DNA from: Pseudomonadota bacterium
GTDB lineage: Bacteria > Pseudomonadota > Alphaproteobacteria > Rhodobacterales > Rhodobacteraceae
NCBI GenBank assembly: GCA_038530925.1
Contig: JBCBCG010000109.1
Span: forward strand, 1-14,544
Direction: 5' to 3'
DNA: 14,544 nucleotides
Shown here: one piece after another, positions 3,778-11,412 of the stretch
Layout of the letters: every line of letters starts with the position of its first letter
How positions within the stretch are numbered: position 1 is the stretch's first letter
Position numbers and translations under genes: made by a program
The notes under the pieces: generated by a model
Told to the model about the DNA's origin: nothing
Database searches by the model: none
The model's input: the letters and a program-made list of their open reading frames with translations, nothing else

Positions 3778-4575
3778 ATGCTGTTTCGCGCTCTCTCGCC
3801 TTGCAAACCGTCCTCATCGCTCCGCGCCGGCGCGCTGATCGCCGCGCTTTTCGCCGCCGTCCCGCTCGCCGCCGCCGCCAACGCCGCGCCGGAGCGCCCA
3901 GCGGAGGTCAAACACCGCTACAAGGCTTATGTCGGCGGCGTGCTGATCGGCAAAGCCTCTCTGACGACGCGCTTCACCGCGGAGGGCTATAGCAGCGAAG
4001 GCAAGCTCGAGACCGACGGCGTCGCCGGCTGGTTCGTCGCCGCCAAAGCCCAAGCCTCCGCGCTCGGCGCGCTCGACGCCTCGGCGCTTGAGCCCGAGCG
4101 CCTGGATGTGACCGCCGACAGCGATGGCGAAGCCTGGCGCATGAGCATCGCCTTCAGCGGCGGCGCGCCCTCGGAGGTGTCGGCCGAGCCGCCGCTGCGA
4201 AGCCGCAAATGGGACATCGATCCCGCTTCGCAAACCGGCGCGCTCGACCCGATCAGCGCCATCGTCCGCGCCATGACCGGCCCGATGACGAGCGCGAGCG
4301 CCGCCGCGCCCTGCGAGCGCACATTGCCGGTTTTCGATGGCCGCAAACGCTACGACATCGTGCTGGAGGAGCAGATCGACGAGCGCGTGAAGGACGGCGT
4401 CACCATCATCGAATGCGCCGCGCGCTGGACGCGGGTCTCCGGCTTCAAGCCGAAGATGATGCGCAAGCCCGACTATCCCTTCACCGCGCGGTTCGCGATC
4501 CGCGACGGGTTGACCGTGCCGGTGCGCATCTGGGGCGACACGGAGTTCGGCGGCGCTGTGGTGGTTCTCCGCTGA
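3778..4575 (+). CDS. Secreted DUF3108-family protein (signal peptide plus DUF3108-like domain)
   Basis: An AGGAG Shine-Dalgarno sequence lies 8 nt upstream of the ATG at 3778. The N-terminus [36 protein letters not shown] is a typical Sec signal peptide. The body ([14 protein letters not shown]...TDGVAGWF...) resembles DUF3108. The six-frame ORF beginning at 3484 is an Arg-rich upstream extension that overlaps the divergent meaB start and is unlikely to be translated. Confidence 0.65.
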
Positions 4576-4814
4576 CGCGCAAGCGGCTGGCCGACCACTC
4601 TCGGCAGGGGAAATTGCGCGCGAATTCAAGCGCCTCGGCCACAGGGCGCAATTTTCGGCCGCAGCCCTCTTGCAGCGCGACCCCCCGCGGCCACATTGGC
4701 GCGGCGTCTTTCATGGCGTCCGAGCTTCGACGGCGGCGGTTCTGCAGGCCGCTCCGGCGCGCGCCGCTCTGCGGTTGCGTGTGCGCAGGCCGGAAACGCA
4801 TGGCGATCGCACCC

Positions 4815-4889
4815 GTGGGTTTAGCTCAGCGGTAGAGCACTCGGCTGCGGGCCGAGCGGACGGGGGTTCGAGTCCCTTAACCTACTCCA
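4815..4889 (+). tRNA. tRNA with an Arg(ACG)-like body but an atypical anticodon loop CUGCGGG (apparent anticodon GCG). The 3' CCA is encoded.
   Basis: Manual cloverleaf: acceptor 4815-4821 pairs with 4879-4885 (two G-U pairs). D-arm is GCUC/AGCGGUAGA/GAGC. Anticodon stem CUCGG (4840-4844) pairs with CCGAG (4852-4856). The variable loop is 5 nt. T-arm is GGGGG/UUCGAGU/CCCUU. Discriminator U4886 is followed by CCA 4887-4889. The anticodon arm and variable region are near-identical to bacterial tRNA-Arg(ACG) (ACUCGG CUACGAA CCGAG CGG.C), but positions 34, 37 and 38 are all G. Confidence 0.7.
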
Positions 4890-4915
4890 ACGGTACGTCC
4901 ACCAAAACCGGGCGT

Positions 4916-4943
4916 GGAGGTTCGACTCCTCCAAGCGACTTAG
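4916..4943 (+). other. Orphan tRNA 3' fragment: a T-arm (GGAGG UUCGACU CCUCC) plus a 7-nt acceptor-like tail. No matching 5' half is present.
   Basis: The sequence GGAGGTTCGACTCCTCC at 4916-4936 matches the canonical tRNA-Arg(ACG) T-arm GGAGGTTCGAATCCTCC at 16 of 17 positions. There is not enough upstream sequence for a full cloverleaf, and no complementary 5' acceptor (GTCGCTT) is found nearby. Confidence 0.4.
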
Positions 4944-5231
4944 CATCGCTCCAGACTACGGGTCTTCGGAGCTCTGTCCTGGCGGCCTTCGAACGCGCCT
5001 CGGCGTGGGAGAGGAACGCCTGCGCCAAAGCGGCCCTGCGCCGCGGATGACGGCGAAGCCGGCTCCGGGCCAGCGCTGAGGCGCCCGCCCGCAGCCCGCG
5101 ACGCCCGCTCGCCGCGGCCCGCGCGCGGCGGCGTCGCGGCCGAGCTCCGGAGATTCCCGCGCCTTTCGCAGGCGCCCTGACTTCCAAGGCGGCGGGCCCG
5201 GCCCGCCGACAGACAAGACGAGCCGAGACCC

Positions 5232-6425
5232 ATGGCAAAGACGCAAACGCCGATCCTGCCCTCCGCGCCGCGCACCTTGCTCGACGCGATCATGGGCCGC
5301 CAACGCATCATCCTGTCGGAGAATGAGCGCGCGGTACTCCTGGTGAAAGGCCGGCTTGAGGACATCCTCGGCCCCGGCGAACATGTGGTCGCCTACCCCG
5401 ATGCGACAGTGGAGCGGCATAACGTCGAGCTGCCGACCTTCTCCTCCGCCTATGAGCGCGTGCTGATGAACCAGCGGCCCGGCCTTGTGGAGCGGCATCT
5501 CACCGAATTCACCGTCGGCGAGGACGAGATCGGCGTGATCGAGCGCGATGGCCGCATCTTCGCGTTGCTGAAACCCGAAGGCCGCAGCCTGCTCTGGACC
5601 GACTCTGGGCCCTGGAGCCTGACGCGCATCAAGATCCCGGCGGATCTCGCCGTGGAGCGCGATTTGGCCAAGCGGCTTGAGCGGTTTCAGGCGAACGACA
5701 AAGTCAGACGCTTCGAAGTCGCCTCGCATCAGGCGGGCTTGCTCTTCGTCGACGGCGCGCTGCAACGCCGTCTCCCGCCAGGCGCGCACGCGTTTTGGTC
5801 GGTCGGCCCGCGGCTGGAGATGAAGCTGATCGATCTGCGCGCCGTGCCGCTCGATGTGCATGGGCAAGAGATCTTGACGCGCGACCGCGTCTCGATCCGC
5901 GTCAATCTCGCCGCGGAGTATCGGGTGGTGGATCCTGAGAAGGCGGTCGCGGCGGTCGAGGATTTCCGCGACACGCTCTACCGCTCGGTCCAGTTCGCCT
6001 TCCGCAGAACGCTCGGCGCGCGGACGCTGGATGAGATCCTGGAGGAGATGGTCGGCATCGACGCGGATGCTGATGCGGCGCTGCGCGCGGATATGGCGGA
6101 GATCGGGCTCGATGTCGGCGAGATCGCTCTCAAGGATGTGATCCTGCCCGGCGATATGCGCGAGATCCTCAACCAGGTCGTCACCGCCGAGAAACAGGCT
6201 CAAGCCAACGTGATCAAGCGGCGCGAAGAAACGGCGGCGACGCGGTCGCTGCTGAACACGGCGAAGGTGATGGCGGAGAACCCGATCATGCTGCGCCTGA
6301 AGGAGCTCGAAGCGCTGGAGGCGATCGCCGAGAAAGTGGACCGCTTGGTGATTCATAACGGCGCTAAAGGCTTGATGCAGGATGTGGCGCGGCTCGTCGA
6401 GCCGGAGGATGACGAGCCGCTCTGA
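5232..6425 (+). CDS. Slipin-family SPFH/band-7 domain protein (stomatin/prohibitin-like), soluble, with a duplicated N-terminal sub-domain
   Basis: The C-terminal half (LDVHGQEILTRDRVSIRVNLAAEYRVVDPEKAV...LKDVILPGDMREILNQVVTAEKQAQANVIKRREETAA...) is a clear SPFH/band-7 core with the coiled-coil tail. Two N-terminal segments (ENERAVLLVKGRLEDILGPGEHVV and HQAGLLFVDGALQRRLPPGAHAF) look like repeated SPFH starts. No transmembrane segment is evident. Confidence 0.75.
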   Translation: MAKTQTPILPSAPRTLLDAIMGRQRIILSENERAVLLVKGRLEDILGPGEHVVAYPDATVERHNVELPTFSSAYERVLMNQRPGLVERHLTEFTVGEDEIGVIERDGRIFALLKPEGRSLLWTDSGPWSLTRIKIPADLAVERDLAKRLERFQANDKVRRFEVASHQAGLLFVDGALQRRLPPGAHAFWSVGPRLEMKLIDLRAVPLDVHGQEILTRDRVSIRVNLAAEYRVVDPEKAVAAVEDFRDTLYRSVQFAFRRTLGARTLDEILEEMVGIDADADAALRADMAEIGLDVGEIALKDVILPGDMREILNQVVTAEKQAQANVIKRREETAATRSLLNTAKVMAENPIMLRLKELEALEAIAEKVDRLVIHNGAKGLMQDVARLVEPEDDEPL

Positions 6426-7001: not shown

Positions 7002-8432
7002 TCAGGCGGCGCCCAGCGCCGCCTGATAGAATGCGCCGAACGACCGGATCTCCTTGATCGCGGCCTCCAAGGCGCGCCAATCATCCTGCTCGGCGATGGG
7101 CGCCCAAACACCCTCGACGCGATCGATCAACATGGTGGTCGGCTCCAGCCGCCGCGCATATGTCGAGCTGAGCGCGGCCGCTGCGCCTGGGAGAGCCGGC
7201 GCCGCGCGCAAGGCGGCGATCGCCTCCGCCCAAACCGGCGCCTCGTAGGTCTCAGCGATCGGGCTCGCGACGATGCGCCCGACCTTCGCCCCGCCCATCA
7301 AATCGAAGAACACGCGCTCGAAAGGCGGCTTGGTCTCACGCATCGCGGTGTAGAACAGCGTGTTGCGCTCCATCGCCGCCGCCTCATCCTCCGCGCTCAG
7401 CAGCAAGCGCCGATGCGTCGCCAGCGCCGTCTCCCGCACCGCGCGCGCGAAAAACGTCTCGAGGCTCGCTTGCAAAGGCTTCAGCGTCGTGAAGGGCAGC
7501 AGGCACTCCGCCAGGCGCGCCAAATTCCACCCGAGCGCGTCGAGCTGGCGCCCATAAGCATACAGACCGGTCTCGTCGAAATAGGCCGCGGTGAAGCCCG
7601 GCTCGAACAGCGGCAAAAAGCGCCACGGCCCGTAATCGAAGCTCTCGCCAGTGATGACGATGTTGTCGGTGTTGAGGACGCCGTGCACGAACCCTGCGGC
7701 GGTCCATTCCGCGCCGAGCCGCGCCACCGCGCCGACAACGCTGTCATAGAGCGCGACGACAGGATCCGGCGCCGCGGCCGCGTCAGGATAATAGATCTCG
7801 ATCGCGTAATCGATCAGGCGGCGCAGCGCCTCGGTCTCTTCATGCGCGGCCAGGCGCTGGAAAAGGCCGATGCGCAAATGGCTGTAGGAGAGACGCGTCA
7901 ACACGGCCGAGCGCGTGGGCGAGGGCTCGTCATTGCGCTCCAGCGCCTCGCCCGTCTCGATCAAGCTGAAGCTGCGCGAGGTCGAGACGCCCAGCGCTTC
8001 AAGAAGCTCGGTCGCCAAAACCTCGCGCACGCCGCCTTTCAGCGTCAGGCGCCCATCGCCGGAGCGCGACCAGGGCGTTCGGCCCGAGCCCTTCGTCGAG
8101 AAGTCGAGCAGCCGATCCGTGCCGGCCTCGCGCATCTGCGCGTAAAGAAAGCCGCGGCCGTCGCCGAGGTCGGGATTGTAATGGCGGAACTGGTGGCCGT
8201 GATAGCGCAGCGCCAGCGGCTTCGGGATGTTGTCGGGCAACGGCTCGAACCGCGCGAAATGGGCGATCCACTCGGCGTCGGTCAAACCATCCAGACCGAT
8301 CGTCGCCGCAGCGCGGTCGTTCCGGAAGCGAATCGCGCTCTCGGGAAACCGGGCGGCGTCGACAACGTCGAAAAACGCCGGCCCAAGGCTCGGATGGCGC
8401 GGATCGGGGCGGTAGGCGGATGAAACGGGCAT
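7002..8432 (-). CDS. selO: Protein adenylyltransferase SelO (YdiU/UPF0061 family)
   Basis: From the ATG at 8432-8430 the translation MPVSSAYRPDP...LALRYHGHQFRHYNPDLGDGRGFLYAQM...GVLNTDNIVITGESFDYGPWRFL... contains the hallmark SelO motifs. The length of 477 aa matches the family. The 793-aa six-frame ORF is an Arg/His-rich upstream extension that runs through the divergent echA gene and is rejected. Confidence 0.9.
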   Translation of the reverse strand: MPVSSAYRPDPRHPSLGPAFFDVVDAARFPESAIRFRNDRAAATIGLDGLTDAEWIAHFARFEPLPDNIPKPLALRYHGHQFRHYNPDLGDGRGFLYAQMREAGTDRLLDFSTKGSGRTPWSRSGDGRLTLKGGVREVLATELLEALGVSTSRSFSLIETGEALERNDEPSPTRSAVLTRLSYSHLRIGLFQRLAAHEETEALRRLIDYAIEIYYPDAAAAPDPVVALYDSVVGAVARLGAEWTAAGFVHGVLNTDNIVITGESFDYGPWRFLPLFEPGFTAAYFDETGLYAYGRQLDALGWNLARLAECLLPFTTLKPLQASLETFFARAVRETALATHRRLLLSAEDEAAAMERNTLFYTAMRETKPPFERVFFDLMGGAKVGRIVASPIAETYEAPVWAEAIAALRAAPALPGAAAALSSTYARRLEPTTMLIDRVEGVWAPIAEQDDWRALEAAIKEIRSFGAFYQAALGAA

Positions 8433-8702
8433 GCCGCGTGAGGTCGGCGCCGGCGCTGGAAAGTCAACCGGTCGCAGCGCGCATTTGCGCCGCCCCGCCC
8501 GCCGGATCACGACCATCGACCGAGACGCTCGCCTGTCGATCACAGGCGGCCAAGCGCTCGCTCCCCGCGAGACTGTCGAACGGCCCGCCGCGAGGCGTGA
8601 TGCGATCAGCGCTTCGCTTTGGCTGCGCTTTGGCGCAAAATCACTAAGCAGCGCCCGAGCGGCGCTTTCATTCGCATCAAGACGATCGCTGGGAGAGCTG
8701 GA

Positions 8703-9518
8703 ATGGACGGAGACGCCGCGCTGTCGGAGACGCCGCTGCTGATGGAGACGAATGGCGGCGTCGCGACGCTGACGCTGAACCGGCCCAAAGCGATCAACGC
8801 GCTGTCCGAAGAGATGCTGGCGGCGCTGCAAGGCGCGCTTGATGAGATCGCCGCGGATCGCTCGGTCAAAGCGGTGATCCTGCGCGGCGCCGGCGCGCAT
8901 TTCTGCGCCGGACATAATCTCAAAGAGATGACCGCGCGGCGCGCGGATGAAGATGGCGGTCGCGCCTATTTCGAGGCGCTGTTCGCGACTTGCGCCACGA
9001 TGATGAAGACGGTGGTGCGCCTGCCGCAGCCCGTGATCGCCGAGGTCTCGGGCATCGCCACCGCCGCGGGCTGCCAGCTCGTCGCGGCCTGCGATCTCGC
9101 CGTCGCCGGGCGGAGCGCGCGCTTCGCCACCTCCGGCGTCAATATCGGCCTTTTCTGCGCGACGCCGATGGTGGCGCTCAGCCGCAATGTGGCGCGCAAG
9201 CAAGCAATGGAGATGCTGCTGCTCGGCGATTTCGTCCCCGCCGCCCGCGCTGCGGAGATCGGGCTCGTGAACCGCGTCGTTCCCGATGATCAGCTCGAGG
9301 CCGAGACCCGCGCCATGGCCGAGGCGATCGCGAGCAAATCGCCGGTCGCGCTCAAGATCGGCAAGGAGGCCTTCTACGCCCAAGCCGAGATGACGCTCGA
9401 TGAGGCCTACGCCTACGCCGGCCGCGCGATGGCGGAGAACATGATGGCCCGCGACGCCAAAGCCGGCATCGGCGCTTTCATCGAGAAGAAGCCGACGCCT
9501 GACTGGACGGGAGAGTGA
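8703..9518 (+). CDS. Enoyl-CoA hydratase/isomerase (crotonase superfamily) protein
   Basis: Crotonase-fold motifs are present (LTLNRPKAINALS, ILRGAGAHFCAGHNLKEM, oxyanion hole GIATAAGCQL, C-terminal AFIEKKP). The ATG at 8703 is preceded by GGGAGAG. The 28 upstream residues in the track ORF lie in the divergent promoter region. Confidence 0.85.
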   Translation: MDGDAALSETPLLMETNGGVATLTLNRPKAINALSEEMLAALQGALDEIAADRSVKAVILRGAGAHFCAGHNLKEMTARRADEDGGRAYFEALFATCATMMKTVVRLPQPVIAEVSGIATAAGCQLVAACDLAVAGRSARFATSGVNIGLFCATPMVALSRNVARKQAMEMLLLGDFVPAARAAEIGLVNRVVPDDQLEAETRAMAEAIASKSPVALKIGKEAFYAQAEMTLDEAYAYAGRAMAENMMARDAKAGIGAFIEKKPTPDWTGE

Positions 9519-9617
9519 GGCGCGCGGCGAAGCTGCAATAATAAGCCCGCTGCAAGATTAAGGGTATTTCCCGCCTCCCTTCCCAAGTTAAAACTCAAGG
9601 CGAGCGAGAGAAATGAA

Positions 9618-10379
9618 ATGAGAGCTTGGATAATTGCGATCGTTGGTGCGCTTGCGGCAGTTGTAGGAATCGTGGCCGGCACCCTAGACCTTCGCGATCG
9701 CTTTTTTGGTGAAGCGCCGCCTGCGGCCGGATTAAATAACACACAATTTGATGAGTTTATATTACTTGAGCCTGAGGAGTTTGACATATACGCCAACAAA
9801 ACAAAAGACGATCTTTTCATATTTCATGGGAAATTTTTGGAATATGAAGAAATGAATGCCCTGGAGTATGACTATATCTCAAAAGAACTTCGAGTAATTT
9901 TTAAAAACGGCGATGTGGGCATTCTTGACCTCCGAGTCTCTTGCGCAGTAGAGCCATATATTCAGGAGGCGGCCGCAGTGAAAATAGTGAGGACGGAAAA
10001 TCGAGAGCCCGTTGACGGAACCACCTTACCCGTTGAGCAGGTGTACCCGCGATCAAAAATCAGAAAGCCAGCACGTGACAGACAAGGTTACTTTGGCGCA
10101 ACTGTAAGAGATTTCCAGATTGGAGACCCGAAAGACTTTGCACAGAATCTTGGCTTTCCTGGAGCCGTGATTGTAGAACTCACTAAAGGCGGACCCGCAG
10201 CGCTTCATGGTTTCCAGGCTGGAGACCGAATTATAAAGTTCGATGACCGAATACTAAAAGATAGGAAAGAGTTTGTGGAGTGCATAAAGCATTCGCCACC
10301 TGAGGTTGAGTTTGGGTTTTTTGTCATTCGAGGCAATGAAAAAAAATTGATAAAAGCCAAACTTGGATCTGTGAAATAA
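9618..10379 (+). CDS. Membrane-anchored PDZ-domain protein of 253 aa (N-terminal TM helix, ~140-aa unknown domain, C-terminal PDZ). Encoded in a low-GC insert.
   Basis: The N-terminus MRAWIIAIVGALAAVVGIVAG is a single TM/signal-anchor. The C-terminus (GYFGATVRDFQIGDPKDFAQNLGFPGAVIVELTKGGPAALHGFQAGDRIIKFDDRIL...EVEFGFFVIRGNEKKLIKAKLG) fits a PDZ fold with the GLGF-like carboxylate-binding loop (NLGFPG). Codon usage is AT-rich, with many AAA, AAT, GAT and TTT codons, quite unlike the flanking genes. Confidence 0.75.
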   Translation: MRAWIIAIVGALAAVVGIVAGTLDLRDRFFGEAPPAAGLNNTQFDEFILLEPEEFDIYANKTKDDLFIFHGKFLEYEEMNALEYDYISKELRVIFKNGDVGILDLRVSCAVEPYIQEAAAVKIVRTENREPVDGTTLPVEQVYPRSKIRKPARDRQGYFGATVRDFQIGDPKDFAQNLGFPGAVIVELTKGGPAALHGFQAGDRIIKFDDRILKDRKEFVECIKHSPPEVEFGFFVIRGNEKKLIKAKLGSVK

Positions 10380-10425
10380 CGCCAAAATCTAAGAACCTCG
10401 AAATTATTATTCAAATCGGGTTTAC

Positions 10426-11412
10426 TCACTTCTCGGCTACGAAAAGCCCTACAAGATTTGAGGGCGTCACGCCGAGATGGCGCTTATAGGCGCGGCGCAT
10501 GGTTTCTTCGGAGCGGAAGCCGAAGCGGGCGGCGGCGGCCTTAAGGGTGATCTTTTGATCCAGCAACGCGTCGCGCGACGCTTCAACGCGGACGCGCTCA
10601 ACGTAACGCGCCGGCGTCTTTCCCGTTTCGGCTTTGAAGAGCCGCGCGAAATTTCGCTCCGACATATGCGCGCGCGCGGCCATGGTCGGCACGGTGTACG
10701 CGCCGCCTGGATCCTCATGAAGGGCGGCGATCAGCGCGTCGAAACGACCTTTCGCGCTTTCGACTTGTTGGCGAAGACCAGCGCTGAATTGGCTCTGACC
10801 GCCGCGGCGCTTGATCGGCAACACCAGCAGACGCGCAATGCGCAGCGCCTCCTTGCGACCGAGATCCCGCTCCACCAAAGCAAGCGCCAGATCGACGCCC
10901 GATGAAACTCCCGCGGAGGTCCAAACGTCGCCGTGCTCGATGAAGATCTCGTCCGCCTGAACGTCGATGTCCGGATACTCGCGCGCGAGCCTCGCGCATT
11001 CCACCCAATGCGTCGTCGCGCGCTTGCCGGACAAAAGACCAGCCTCCGCCAGGATGAACGCGCCGAGGCACACCGAGCAGAGGCGTCGCCCGGCGCGAGC
11101 CCCTCTTTTCAGCACCGCTGAAAGCTCCATCGAACGGCGCGCCGCGAAGGCGCCGCGCCCGCCGGCGACGATCAGCGTCTGCGCCCGCGCCGCGCCGCGG
11201 AGCTCTGCCGCCGACAACGCCACGATCGTATCCGTCGCCACCGTCCCAGCCCGCTCCGCGTGGAGGCTGAGGCGGTAGGCCGCGGATCCGTCTTGGCGGC
11301 GCGCATCTGAAAAGACCTGAAGCGGTCCCGCGACGTCGAGCAGCTTCACATCGTCATAGACGATCAAAGCGACTGTCAGAGGCGAAGGCGCTTTGGCGGA
11401 ATTTGCTGGCAT
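10426..11412 (-). CDS. GlxA-family transcriptional regulator (DJ-1/PfpI-like N-terminal domain plus AraC-type HTH)
   Basis: The N-terminal domain (VALIVYDDVKLLDVAGPLQVF...CSVCLGAFILAEAGLLSGKRATTHW) has the conserved Cys of DJ-1/PfpI. The C-terminal part (MSERNFARLFKAETGKTPARYVERVRVEASRDALLD...RFGFRSEETMRRAYKRHLGVTPS) is an AraC HTH. Confidence 0.85.
   Translation of the reverse strand: MPANSAKAPSPLTVALIVYDDVKLLDVAGPLQVFSDARRQDGSAAYRLSLHAERAGTVATDTIVALSAAELRGAARAQTLIVAGGRGAFAARRSMELSAVLKRGARAGRRLCSVCLGAFILAEAGLLSGKRATTHWVECARLAREYPDIDVQADEIFIEHGDVWTSAGVSSGVDLALALVERDLGRKEALRIARLLVLPIKRRGGQSQFSAGLRQQVESAKGRFDALIAALHEDPGGAYTVPTMAARAHMSERNFARLFKAETGKTPARYVERVRVEASRDALLDQKITLKAAAARFGFRSEETMRRAYKRHLGVTPSNLVGLFVAEK

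Follow-up and report, generated by a model that had tools for sequence, protein, structure and literature searches.

Introduction

Several RNAs resemble a tRNA or contain a part that does. The tRNA-like domain of transfer-messenger RNA (tmRNA) mimics a tRNA without decoding; it bears G3-U70 and CCA and is a substrate of RNase P. In tmRNA an anticodon arm is lacking, a tag reading frame and pseudoknots are present, and G3-U70 and A73 always occur. YrlA and the bacterial Y RNAs (RF02553), partners of the Ro60 orthologue Rsr, are also non-decoding non-coding RNAs with a tRNA-shaped module, in which the acceptor, D and T arms form a conserved elbow, and are linked to one gene, rsr; a loop closes this module, so that a free CCA end is missing. 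In eukaryotes, mascRNA/MALAT1 and MEN-beta carry a cloverleaf within a long transcript, in which recognition by RNase P and RNase Z sets the ends of the flanking RNA. Here we describe a 75-nt cloverleaf at positions 4815–4889 (plus strand) of the alphaproteobacterial contig JBCBCG010000109.1, a single complete 14,544-bp contig of a metagenome-assembled genome that is referred to below as the window. An initial annotation made from the sequence alone had taken it for either an unusual tRNA-Arg(GCG) or a tRNA pseudogene. Our comparison of related loci suggests that it is probably a conserved non-decoding tRNA-like domain within a larger structured RNA of about 450 nt (roughly 4704–5160, same strand), which lies directly 5′ of a gene for a probably soluble slipin of the SPFH family.

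The element differs from each of these systems. Compared with tmRNA, its anticodon stem is kept, its discriminator is random and G3-U70 is clade-specific; neither ARAGORN nor Rfam at E ≤ 10 found a tmRNA in the window. Compared with YrlA, its cloverleaf is complete, includes an anticodon arm and in most cases an encoded CCA, and lies between a three-way junction (3WJ) and a domain of about 200 nt. A Pfam scan of the ten large open reading frames (ORFs) of the window gave no rsr product or TROVE domain. A search of Rfam 15 at E ≤ 10, covering the window, five relatives and one Bryobacteraceae locus, returned tRNA plus sub-threshold matches only; the latter included YrlA matches straddling two successive tRNA-like modules in four relatives (16–31 bits, the gathering score being 69) as well as matches to Deinococcus Y RNA, which we regard as noise. 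With the mascRNA-type elements, which are eukaryotic nuclear long non-coding RNAs without any sequence relationship to the present element, the likeness would lie in the mechanism proposed below. The thrU-tyrU-glyT-thrT-tufB transcript of Escherichia coli likewise places cloverleafs 5′ of a protein gene in one transcript that is split by tRNA-processing enzymes, but those are real tRNAs with conserved anticodons, whereas the present element has a free anticodon and conserved structured flanks. A further parallel is vault RNA, a small structured RNA found together with a cage-forming protein, the major vault protein (MVP), whose shoulder domain adopts the SPFH fold; the genes for vault RNA contain promoter elements of the tRNA type, box A and box B. 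What sets the present element apart from the known mimics is a complete cloverleaf, usually with CCA and often duplicated in tandem, placed between a 3WJ and a closed domain in front of an SPFH gene. Full-text searches of the literature on slipin, SPFH proteins, vaults and surveys of structured RNAs turned up neither a tRNA-like element linked to slipin or SPFH proteins nor a description of the RNA.

Results

The cloverleaf in the window

ARAGORN called a 75-nt tRNA-Arg(gcg) at 4815–4889 (+), and the Rfam tRNA model matched this cloverleaf, hereafter module 1, with 61.1 bits (E = 2e-11; gathering score 29), tRNA being the sole Rfam family matched in the window at its gathering threshold. Divided into its structural elements, module 1 reads GUGGGUU-UA-GCUC-AGCGGUA-GAGC-A-CUCGG-CUGCGGG-CCGAG-CGGAC-GGGGG-UUCGAGU-CCCUU-AACCUAC-U-CCA, with U73 as discriminator and an encoded CCA. 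The initial annotation had correctly recognised the complete cloverleaf with its CCA, the loop C-U-G-C-G-G-G and two G-U pairs in the T-stem (G49-U65 and G50-U64); it had also counted two G-U pairs in the acceptor stem, where GUGGGUU/AACCUAC forms just one, G3-U70. The 7-nt loop has U33 and a purine at 37, C35 is present, and in the D loop AGCGGUA the base following G18G19 is U, not A20. The suggested pairing of C32 with G38 does occur in the single-sequence minimum-free-energy fold, together with U33-G37, leaving a loop of 3 nt. Single-sequence folding of module 1 and of the whole leader was otherwise uninformative (z = −0.4 and −0.6, at 70% GC).

The reported close match to tRNA-Arg(ACG) proved to be unspecific, because a scan of 185,579 species, each represented by one genome, for the body of module 1 returned seven loci that were all tRNA-Val(TAC), and no gene combining this body with a GCG loop. 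The scan required an exact match to the D-arm, to the anticodon stem and to the first part of the variable loop, and allowed any base at the five positions in the centre of the loop. Among these genomes module 1 thus has no close relative that is a tRNA. A plasmid BLAST search with the whole RNA gave matches at tRNA level only.

Conservation of the fold and variability of the anticodon

Module 1 was compared at slipin loci, using the ARAGORN calls from 53 loci and, for stems and identities, a MAFFT alignment of 49 copies. The 53 copies showed 34 different ‘anticodons’, and the orthologous position carried those for Asn, Tyr, Gln, Leu, Lys, Cys, Ile, Met, Thr, Ser, Pro, Ala, Val and stop. According to ARAGORN the anticodon loop had 7 nt in 41 copies, 6 nt in 8 and 8 nt in 4, and U33 was found in 28 of the 41 seven-nt loops; counted on the alignment, the alphaproteobacterial loops ranged from 4 to 9 nt. 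The discriminator was nearly evenly spread over the four bases (U 15, C 14, A 14, G 10), and CCA was encoded in 31/53 copies.

On the other hand, the cloverleaf itself was strongly constrained. Paired cells amounted to 94.6% of the cloverleaf, compared with 34–46% when the partners were slid, the covariation score was 0.59 vs about 0.1 for slid partners, and compensatory changes were observed at 15 of 21 pairs, in three of the four stems. The anticodon stem was 98% paired with compensatory changes at all five of its pairs. The D stem, the pairs G52-C62 and G53-C61, and likewise G18G19 were invariant across the 49 copies. Pairwise identity was accordingly high in the D stem (1.00), T loop (0.87) and T stem (0.74), whereas that of the anticodon loop (0.33) and the discriminator (0.24) was at chance level. 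The acceptor stem, taken as one region, reached a pairwise identity of only 49%. G3-U70 occurred in 18/27 alphaproteobacterial copies vs 2/22 in a Bryobacteraceae-like clade, so that it is a feature of the clade and not of the family.

Judged from these alignments, selection keeps the four stems, the sequence of the D stem, G18G19 and the T-stem with its loop, while the anticodon loop and the discriminator drift. Since the fold is constrained and these two elements are at chance level, both a decoding tRNA and a neutral pseudogene are ruled out, and the same pattern argues against a conserved aminoacyl-tRNA synthetase identity for module 1. As in other tRNA mimics, the determinants of the L-shape (acceptor and T helices, D/T-loop elbow) are conserved, the anticodon and the identity positions are free of decoding and synthetase constraint, and the cloverleaf is fixed beside other conserved structured RNA, namely the 3WJ upstream and a 3′ domain. 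The initial annotation was right in calling the loop non-canonical and a standard decoding role unlikely, and it mentioned regulatory tRNA-like elements in passing.

Some copies deviate further in shape. In locus L017 (about 5333–5386), module 1 consists of acceptor stem, D-arm and T-arm (GCAUAUG-CA-GCUC..GAGC-GCUUC-GGG-UUCGAUU-CCC-G-GCAUAUGC) and has no anticodon arm, which shows that this arm is dispensable. In L013 (2845–2938) and L016 (5392–5487), it has a long variable arm resembling class II and a total length of 94–96 nt in an otherwise orthologous context.

Distribution and linkage to slipin

In the window, the genes SIR2, MeaB and DUF3108 (ending at 4575) are followed by a gap of 656 nt, slipin (SPFH/Band_7; 5232–6425, +) and SelO; the RNA is consistently linked to slipin alone. 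The DUF3108 protein has only three other relatives among 5.8 billion proteins; their contigs share the layout DUF3108-gap-slipin, and the one that extends further upstream (L008) also has SIR2, L28 and MeaB. Throughout L008–L016, DUF3108 and slipin enclose a gap of 630–890 nt containing a tRNA-like gene. The acceptor, D and T arms of L008 and L009 are nearly as in the window and the acceptor stem of L010 is degenerate, while the anticodon arms differ in all three DUF3108 relatives (‘Asn gtt’, ‘Arg tcg’ with a 9-nt loop, and ‘Tyr gta’). Alignment of the gap between the window and these relatives gave a mean column identity of 64%, with conserved blocks 5′ and 3′ of the cloverleaf; because the blocks contain 1-nt indels, the region is non-coding. 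A hidden coding region or leader peptide across the RNA was rejected on the grounds of these indels and of ORFs that are unconserved between the loci L087 and L091.

Slipin homologues at 62–68% identity, plus one Mesorhizobium-type locus at 56%, gave the same picture, with calls of Gln, Leu, Gln with a long variable arm, Leu and Cys, an uncallable cloverleaf and Met, Lys, and a cloverleaf with a 6-nt loop. The upstream gene differs while the RNA stays in L017 (GlnD), L018 and the Bryobacteraceae locus L091, and we take the first two of these as evidence that the RNA accompanies slipin. A scan of JGI metagenomes that was anchored on the protein provided 80 further slipin loci at 39–57% identity. 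An nhmmer profile of the gap matched upstream of slipin in about 65 of these 80, and ARAGORN found one or two tRNA-like genes with calls across the genetic code, including ‘tRNA-Stop(tta)’ and ‘anticodons’ of 2 nt or 4 nt. Among the 73 distinct slipin loci whose upstream sequence reached 650 nt or more, the 3WJ was present in 68, a cloverleaf detectable by ARAGORN in 66, and neither in 3. According to the named homologues, the nearer clade belongs to Alphaproteobacteria (Mesorhizobium, Nitratireductor, Rhodobacteraceae, Neomegalonema) and the distant one to Bryobacteraceae of the phylum Acidobacteriota. A pattern scan of metagenomes with the most conserved 3′ block gave 0 matches.

Regarding the other side of slipin, the 3′ genes vary and include a TIR_2-domain protein and a ParD/ParE toxin-antitoxin pair (L012, 6496–7821; L014, 7307–7918); no conserved third partner was seen beside slipin in L012 and L014. 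At the Mesorhizobium-type locus L018, a sub-threshold match to the Brucella sRNA CI27 (RF02600; 5133–5264, 42.8 bits vs a gathering score of 59.8) runs from the 3′ end of slipin (stop at 5143) into the downstream gap.

The three-way junction and the 5′ end

The 3WJ upstream of module 1 was searched for with a covariance model, R1, whose single match within the window is at 4706–4798 (+; 66.5 bits, E = 1e-14). Helix P1 (about 4722–4728 paired with 4786–4792) leads into the junction sequence AAYRG, followed by the hairpin P2; P3 has the form GGYGCGG/CCGURURCC, contains a conserved U-R bulge of 2 nt and ends in a stem of 4 bp that bears a C[NNU]G triloop. Over 57 sequences, 87.4% of the 3WJ cells were paired vs 34–43% with slid partners, and compensatory changes were found at 21 of 23 pairs; none of 500 shuffles attained the observed value. 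In 69 slipin loci, R1 occurred in exactly one copy per locus, always on the plus strand and 5′ of the cloverleaf. No further match was found in 487 kb, and the tRNA-Val control loci contained none at all. The distance from the end of R1 to the start of the cloverleaf was 6–17 nt in 53 loci and is 16 nt in the window. Pattern matches to the P3 consensus were also met in viral DNA (>120), and all of the 80 that were examined by covariance model proved spurious; R1 scored at most 20 bits over 666 kb of viral sequence in which the P3 consensus words occur.

Further upstream, a putative promoter element, CTTGCA-N17-CACATT, can be read from the sequence at 4669–4697 (+), and the same −35 and −10 blocks with a 17-nt spacer align in L008–L011, which would make a transcription start near 4704 likely. 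Because a scan of 4400–5400 with a strict consensus found no sigma-70 promoter, we speak of this promoter as an inference only. The same scan found no intrinsic terminator in that region, nor, in particular, between the RNA and slipin. In loci of the Bryobacteraceae clade (L087, 2037–2056; L091, 2046–2065), a conserved GGAGG is followed after 8–10 nt by an AUG directly 5′ of P1, and the ORFs starting from these AUGs are unconserved past the D-arm of the cloverleaf.

Module 2, the small hairpin and the 3′ domain

Downstream of module 1, alignments with relatives delineate a degenerate tRNA-like module 2 at 4890–4933 (+). In the window, it is reduced to its T-arm GGAGG-UUCGACU-CCUCC (4916–4932); in comparison with L008, L009, L011 and L012, a deletion has removed its D-arm together with the 5′ strand of its anticodon stem. 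The initial annotation was right to tie this neighbouring T-arm to the cloverleaf, but what it described as a ‘rearrangement scar’ is the truncated module 2 of the same element. In relatives, a second tRNA match lies 0–4 nt after the CCA of module 1 (Rfam, 34–70 bits), and two of the three DUF3108 relatives show an acceptor-less second match 3–4 nt past the CCA. In the ARAGORN calls, module 2, if present, begins 0–2 nt past the CCA of module 1 or overlaps with module 1, and possesses an acceptor-like stem of 5 bp, usually without CCA. Between module 2 and the 3′ domain, the window sequence can form a small hairpin, AGCGA-CUUAGCA-UCGCU (4934–4950, +), and L009, L011 and L012 have different hairpins at the same place.

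The 3′ domain, as predicted by RNAalifold from 11 alphaproteobacterial sequences, is a closed multi-helix structure of about 200 nt (4961–5155, +). It is closed by a helix of 16 bp (4961–4976 with 5140–5155) and contains the inner helices 5022–5025/5131–5134, 5030–5033/5119–5122, 5040–5046/5112–5118, 5052–5054/5103–5105 and 5058–5070/5087–5099. In the alphaproteobacterial alignment 92.1% of its cells were paired vs 39–48% with slid partners, and 26 of 48 pairs showed compensatory changes. The Bryobacteraceae clade has an analogous closed domain (86.9% vs 34–47%, compensatory changes at 22 of 32 pairs), and in both clades the domain ends with ...CCNGGGGAUYU a few tens of nt 5′ of the ribosome-binding site of slipin. 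In the window, its end is about 75 nt from the slipin start codon.

In many alphaproteobacterial loci, including L034, L021, L025, L013, L016, L047 and L056, a tiny upstream ORF with its own Shine-Dalgarno sequence lies about 30–60 nt 5′ of the slipin ATG. It has the form AAAGGA, 6–9 nt, a start codon, 1–4 codons and a stop (for instance, ATG ACC TAG, ATG CCG CCC TAG or TTG CGA CGA CGA TAG), and is not evident in the window.

The slipin protein

The slipin of the window matched only Band_7 in Pfam, and in NCBIfam only HflK (the Bryobacteraceae copy also HflC), far below the model cut-offs. Its AlphaFold2 model (pLDDT 79) consists of three N-terminal five-stranded beta units, the SPFH domain and a long helix. 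Since it has no hydrophobic N-terminal anchor, the protein is probably soluble. MVP structures were among its Foldseek matches, with alignments spanning about 400 columns; a preprint on bacterial MVP homologues deals with different proteins and does not mention RNA. PADLOC gave no match for slipin or DUF3108, and membership of either in a defence system was rejected for this reason.

Other features of the window

ARAGORN also called a 100-nt ‘tRNA-Ser(tga)’ on the minus strand at 4385–4484, inside the DUF3108 coding sequence (265 aa, about 3778–4575, +); it has no Rfam tRNA match at the gathering threshold and is most likely a false positive. GC content is 0.46 at 9501–10500 compared with 0.62–0.73 elsewhere in the window; this stretch, which coincides with a PDZ-domain ORF (9618–10379), may be horizontally acquired DNA. 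In the SelO ORF (7002–9383, −; 793 aa), the SelO domain covers residues 328–779 only, and the N-terminal extension of about 330 aa may reflect an ORF called too long in DNA of high GC content, or it may be an additional domain.

Discussion

Taken in order, the predicted parts of this RNA locus are a promoter, the 3WJ of about 93 nt, module 1 with its CCA, module 2, the small hairpin, the domain of about 200 nt, a spacer of about 75 nt and the slipin ATG. We propose that the RNA would have a promoter of its own and be transcribed as the leader of slipin, and that its module or modules would act as a pre-tRNA look-alike read by the machinery that recognises tRNAs. The cloverleaf would be cleaved by RNase P at its 5′ end (+1) and, where module 2 abuts the CCA, there as well, giving a mature CCA 3′ end. 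Such cuts would free the 3WJ RNA and the tRNA-like RNA or RNAs from the long leader and would set where the slipin transcript begins and ends. While a non-decoding tRNA-like domain is probable, this specific punctuation by RNase P is a tentative proposal to which we would give less than an even chance.

Several points weigh against this picture. The transcript boundaries, the co-transcription with slipin and the cleavage by RNase P are all inferred. All loci were found via slipin or the neighbouring DUF3108, and the RNA without slipin was sought in their flanks. The structures of the 3′ domain were derived by RNAalifold from the same alignments that were used for counting, so the support for this domain is weaker than that for the 3WJ and the cloverleaf. 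The retention of G3-U70 in 18/27 alphaproteobacterial copies is unexplained by the processing model and could reflect a constraint, for example by alanyl-tRNA synthetase (AlaRS). Finally, there is a slight possibility of an additional decoding role in the source organism, which is known from one 14.5-kb contig.

Of the two explanations offered by the initial annotation, a genuine tRNA-Arg(GCG) that reads CGC and CGU without editing by TadA would suit the complete cloverleaf, the CCA, U33, C35 and the purine at 37 of the window copy. The identity elements recognised by arginyl-tRNA synthetase (ArgRS) are A20 and C35 in E. coli and Thermus thermophilus, A20 being the main one in E. coli. In the window copy this set is incomplete, with C35 present but A20 absent; moreover, no orthologue conserves the anticodon, the orthologous position instead carrying many others in loops of 4–9 nt, the discriminator is random across the family, and the body with a GCG loop was found in none of the 185,579 species genomes. 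This explanation is therefore barely credible, and whether a G34 bypasses TadA editing is a moot question, since selection does not act on the anticodon. Hardly better placed is the other explanation, a tRNA pseudogene decaying after a rearrangement, to which the T-stem G-U pairs, the odd loop and the adjoining truncated tRNA fragment could point. Against decay stand the purifying selection on the fold from Alphaproteobacteria to Acidobacteriota (94.6% pairing over 49 sequences from two phyla, with compensatory substitutions in three of four stems and a core of D-stem and T-loop that does not vary) and the fixed spacing to a covarying 3WJ; what is degenerate in the window is module 2 only. An alanine-accepting RNA, serving as a substrate of AlaRS through G3-U70 and delivering alanine outside normal decoding or in the manner of tmRNA, seems very unlikely and would concern the alphaproteobacterial clade. 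G3-U70 is the main AlaRS determinant, and the window copy has it together with an encoded CCA; most alphaproteobacterial copies have the pair, although the acceptor stem is little conserved overall. Nevertheless, the pair is found in only 2/22 Bryobacteraceae-like copies, the discriminator is random and CCA is encoded in just 31/53. ARAGORN gave no tmRNA, the Rfam tmRNA model reached 28.6 bits in one relative against a gathering score of 47, and a tag reading frame was not found. A tmRNA, including its permuted two-piece form, was rejected in view of the missing ARAGORN and Rfam support, the intact cloverleaf and the absence of a tag frame.

The remaining two explanations concern what a non-decoding tRNA-like RNA would do for slipin. 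The RNA could be a cis-regulatory leader, riboswitch-like or protein-binding, in which the 3WJ acts as sensor and the tRNA-like module with the 3′ domain relays to slipin translation. The near-invariant nucleotides in the junction and bulge of the 3WJ are reminiscent of ligand-binding aptamers, the RNA ends about 40–75 nt 5′ of the slipin ribosome-binding site, and many alphaproteobacterial loci have the tiny upstream ORF with a Shine-Dalgarno sequence before the slipin ATG. However, about 350 nt with a full cloverleaf separate the 3WJ from the start codon, unlike in known expression platforms, and neither a terminator nor an obvious structure sequestering the ribosome-binding site was identified. 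We consider such a leader unlikely, although it overlaps with the proposed processed tRNA mimic and does not exclude it. Alternatively, the RNA or its processed pieces could be a partner of the slipin protein, bound or enclosed by an oligomeric SPFH cage in a ribonucleoprotein (RNP) loosely comparable to the vault or Ro particles. This is quite unlikely in our estimation, even though across two phyla the RNA is linked to no gene other than slipin, and the slipin protein is probably soluble for want of a hydrophobic N-terminal anchor and has MVP structures among its long Foldseek alignments. The stronger form of this idea, a bacterial RNP cage built of a slipin oligomer and the processed tRNA-like and 3WJ RNAs as a prokaryotic counterpart of the vault or the Ro/Y-RNA particle, is decidedly unlikely; in such a cage, the tRNA mimic would be a handle for assembly or cargo.

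Under the preferred reading of module 1 as a non-decoding mimic, ARAGORN calls at slipin loci, which span nearly all specificities and include a suppressor-like stop call, can be mistaken for odd isoacceptors, recoding or pseudogenes, and in these families a tRNA call directly 5′ of slipin should be read as a mimic. As far as these comparisons of sequences go, a structured RNA with embedded tRNA mimics is apparently undescribed and phylogenetically broad. If the data hold, it would be a multi-domain covarying RNA of about 430–600 nt, absent from Rfam 15 and shared by Alphaproteobacteria and Acidobacteriota. It would contain one or two complete tRNA look-alikes with a freely evolving anticodon loop, and its carriers would include the cultivable Mesorhizobium and Nitratireductor. 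The linkage to this RNA would give an entry point into the role of a soluble SPFH protein, and possibly reveal an RNA–protein relationship that is new for the SPFH superfamily.

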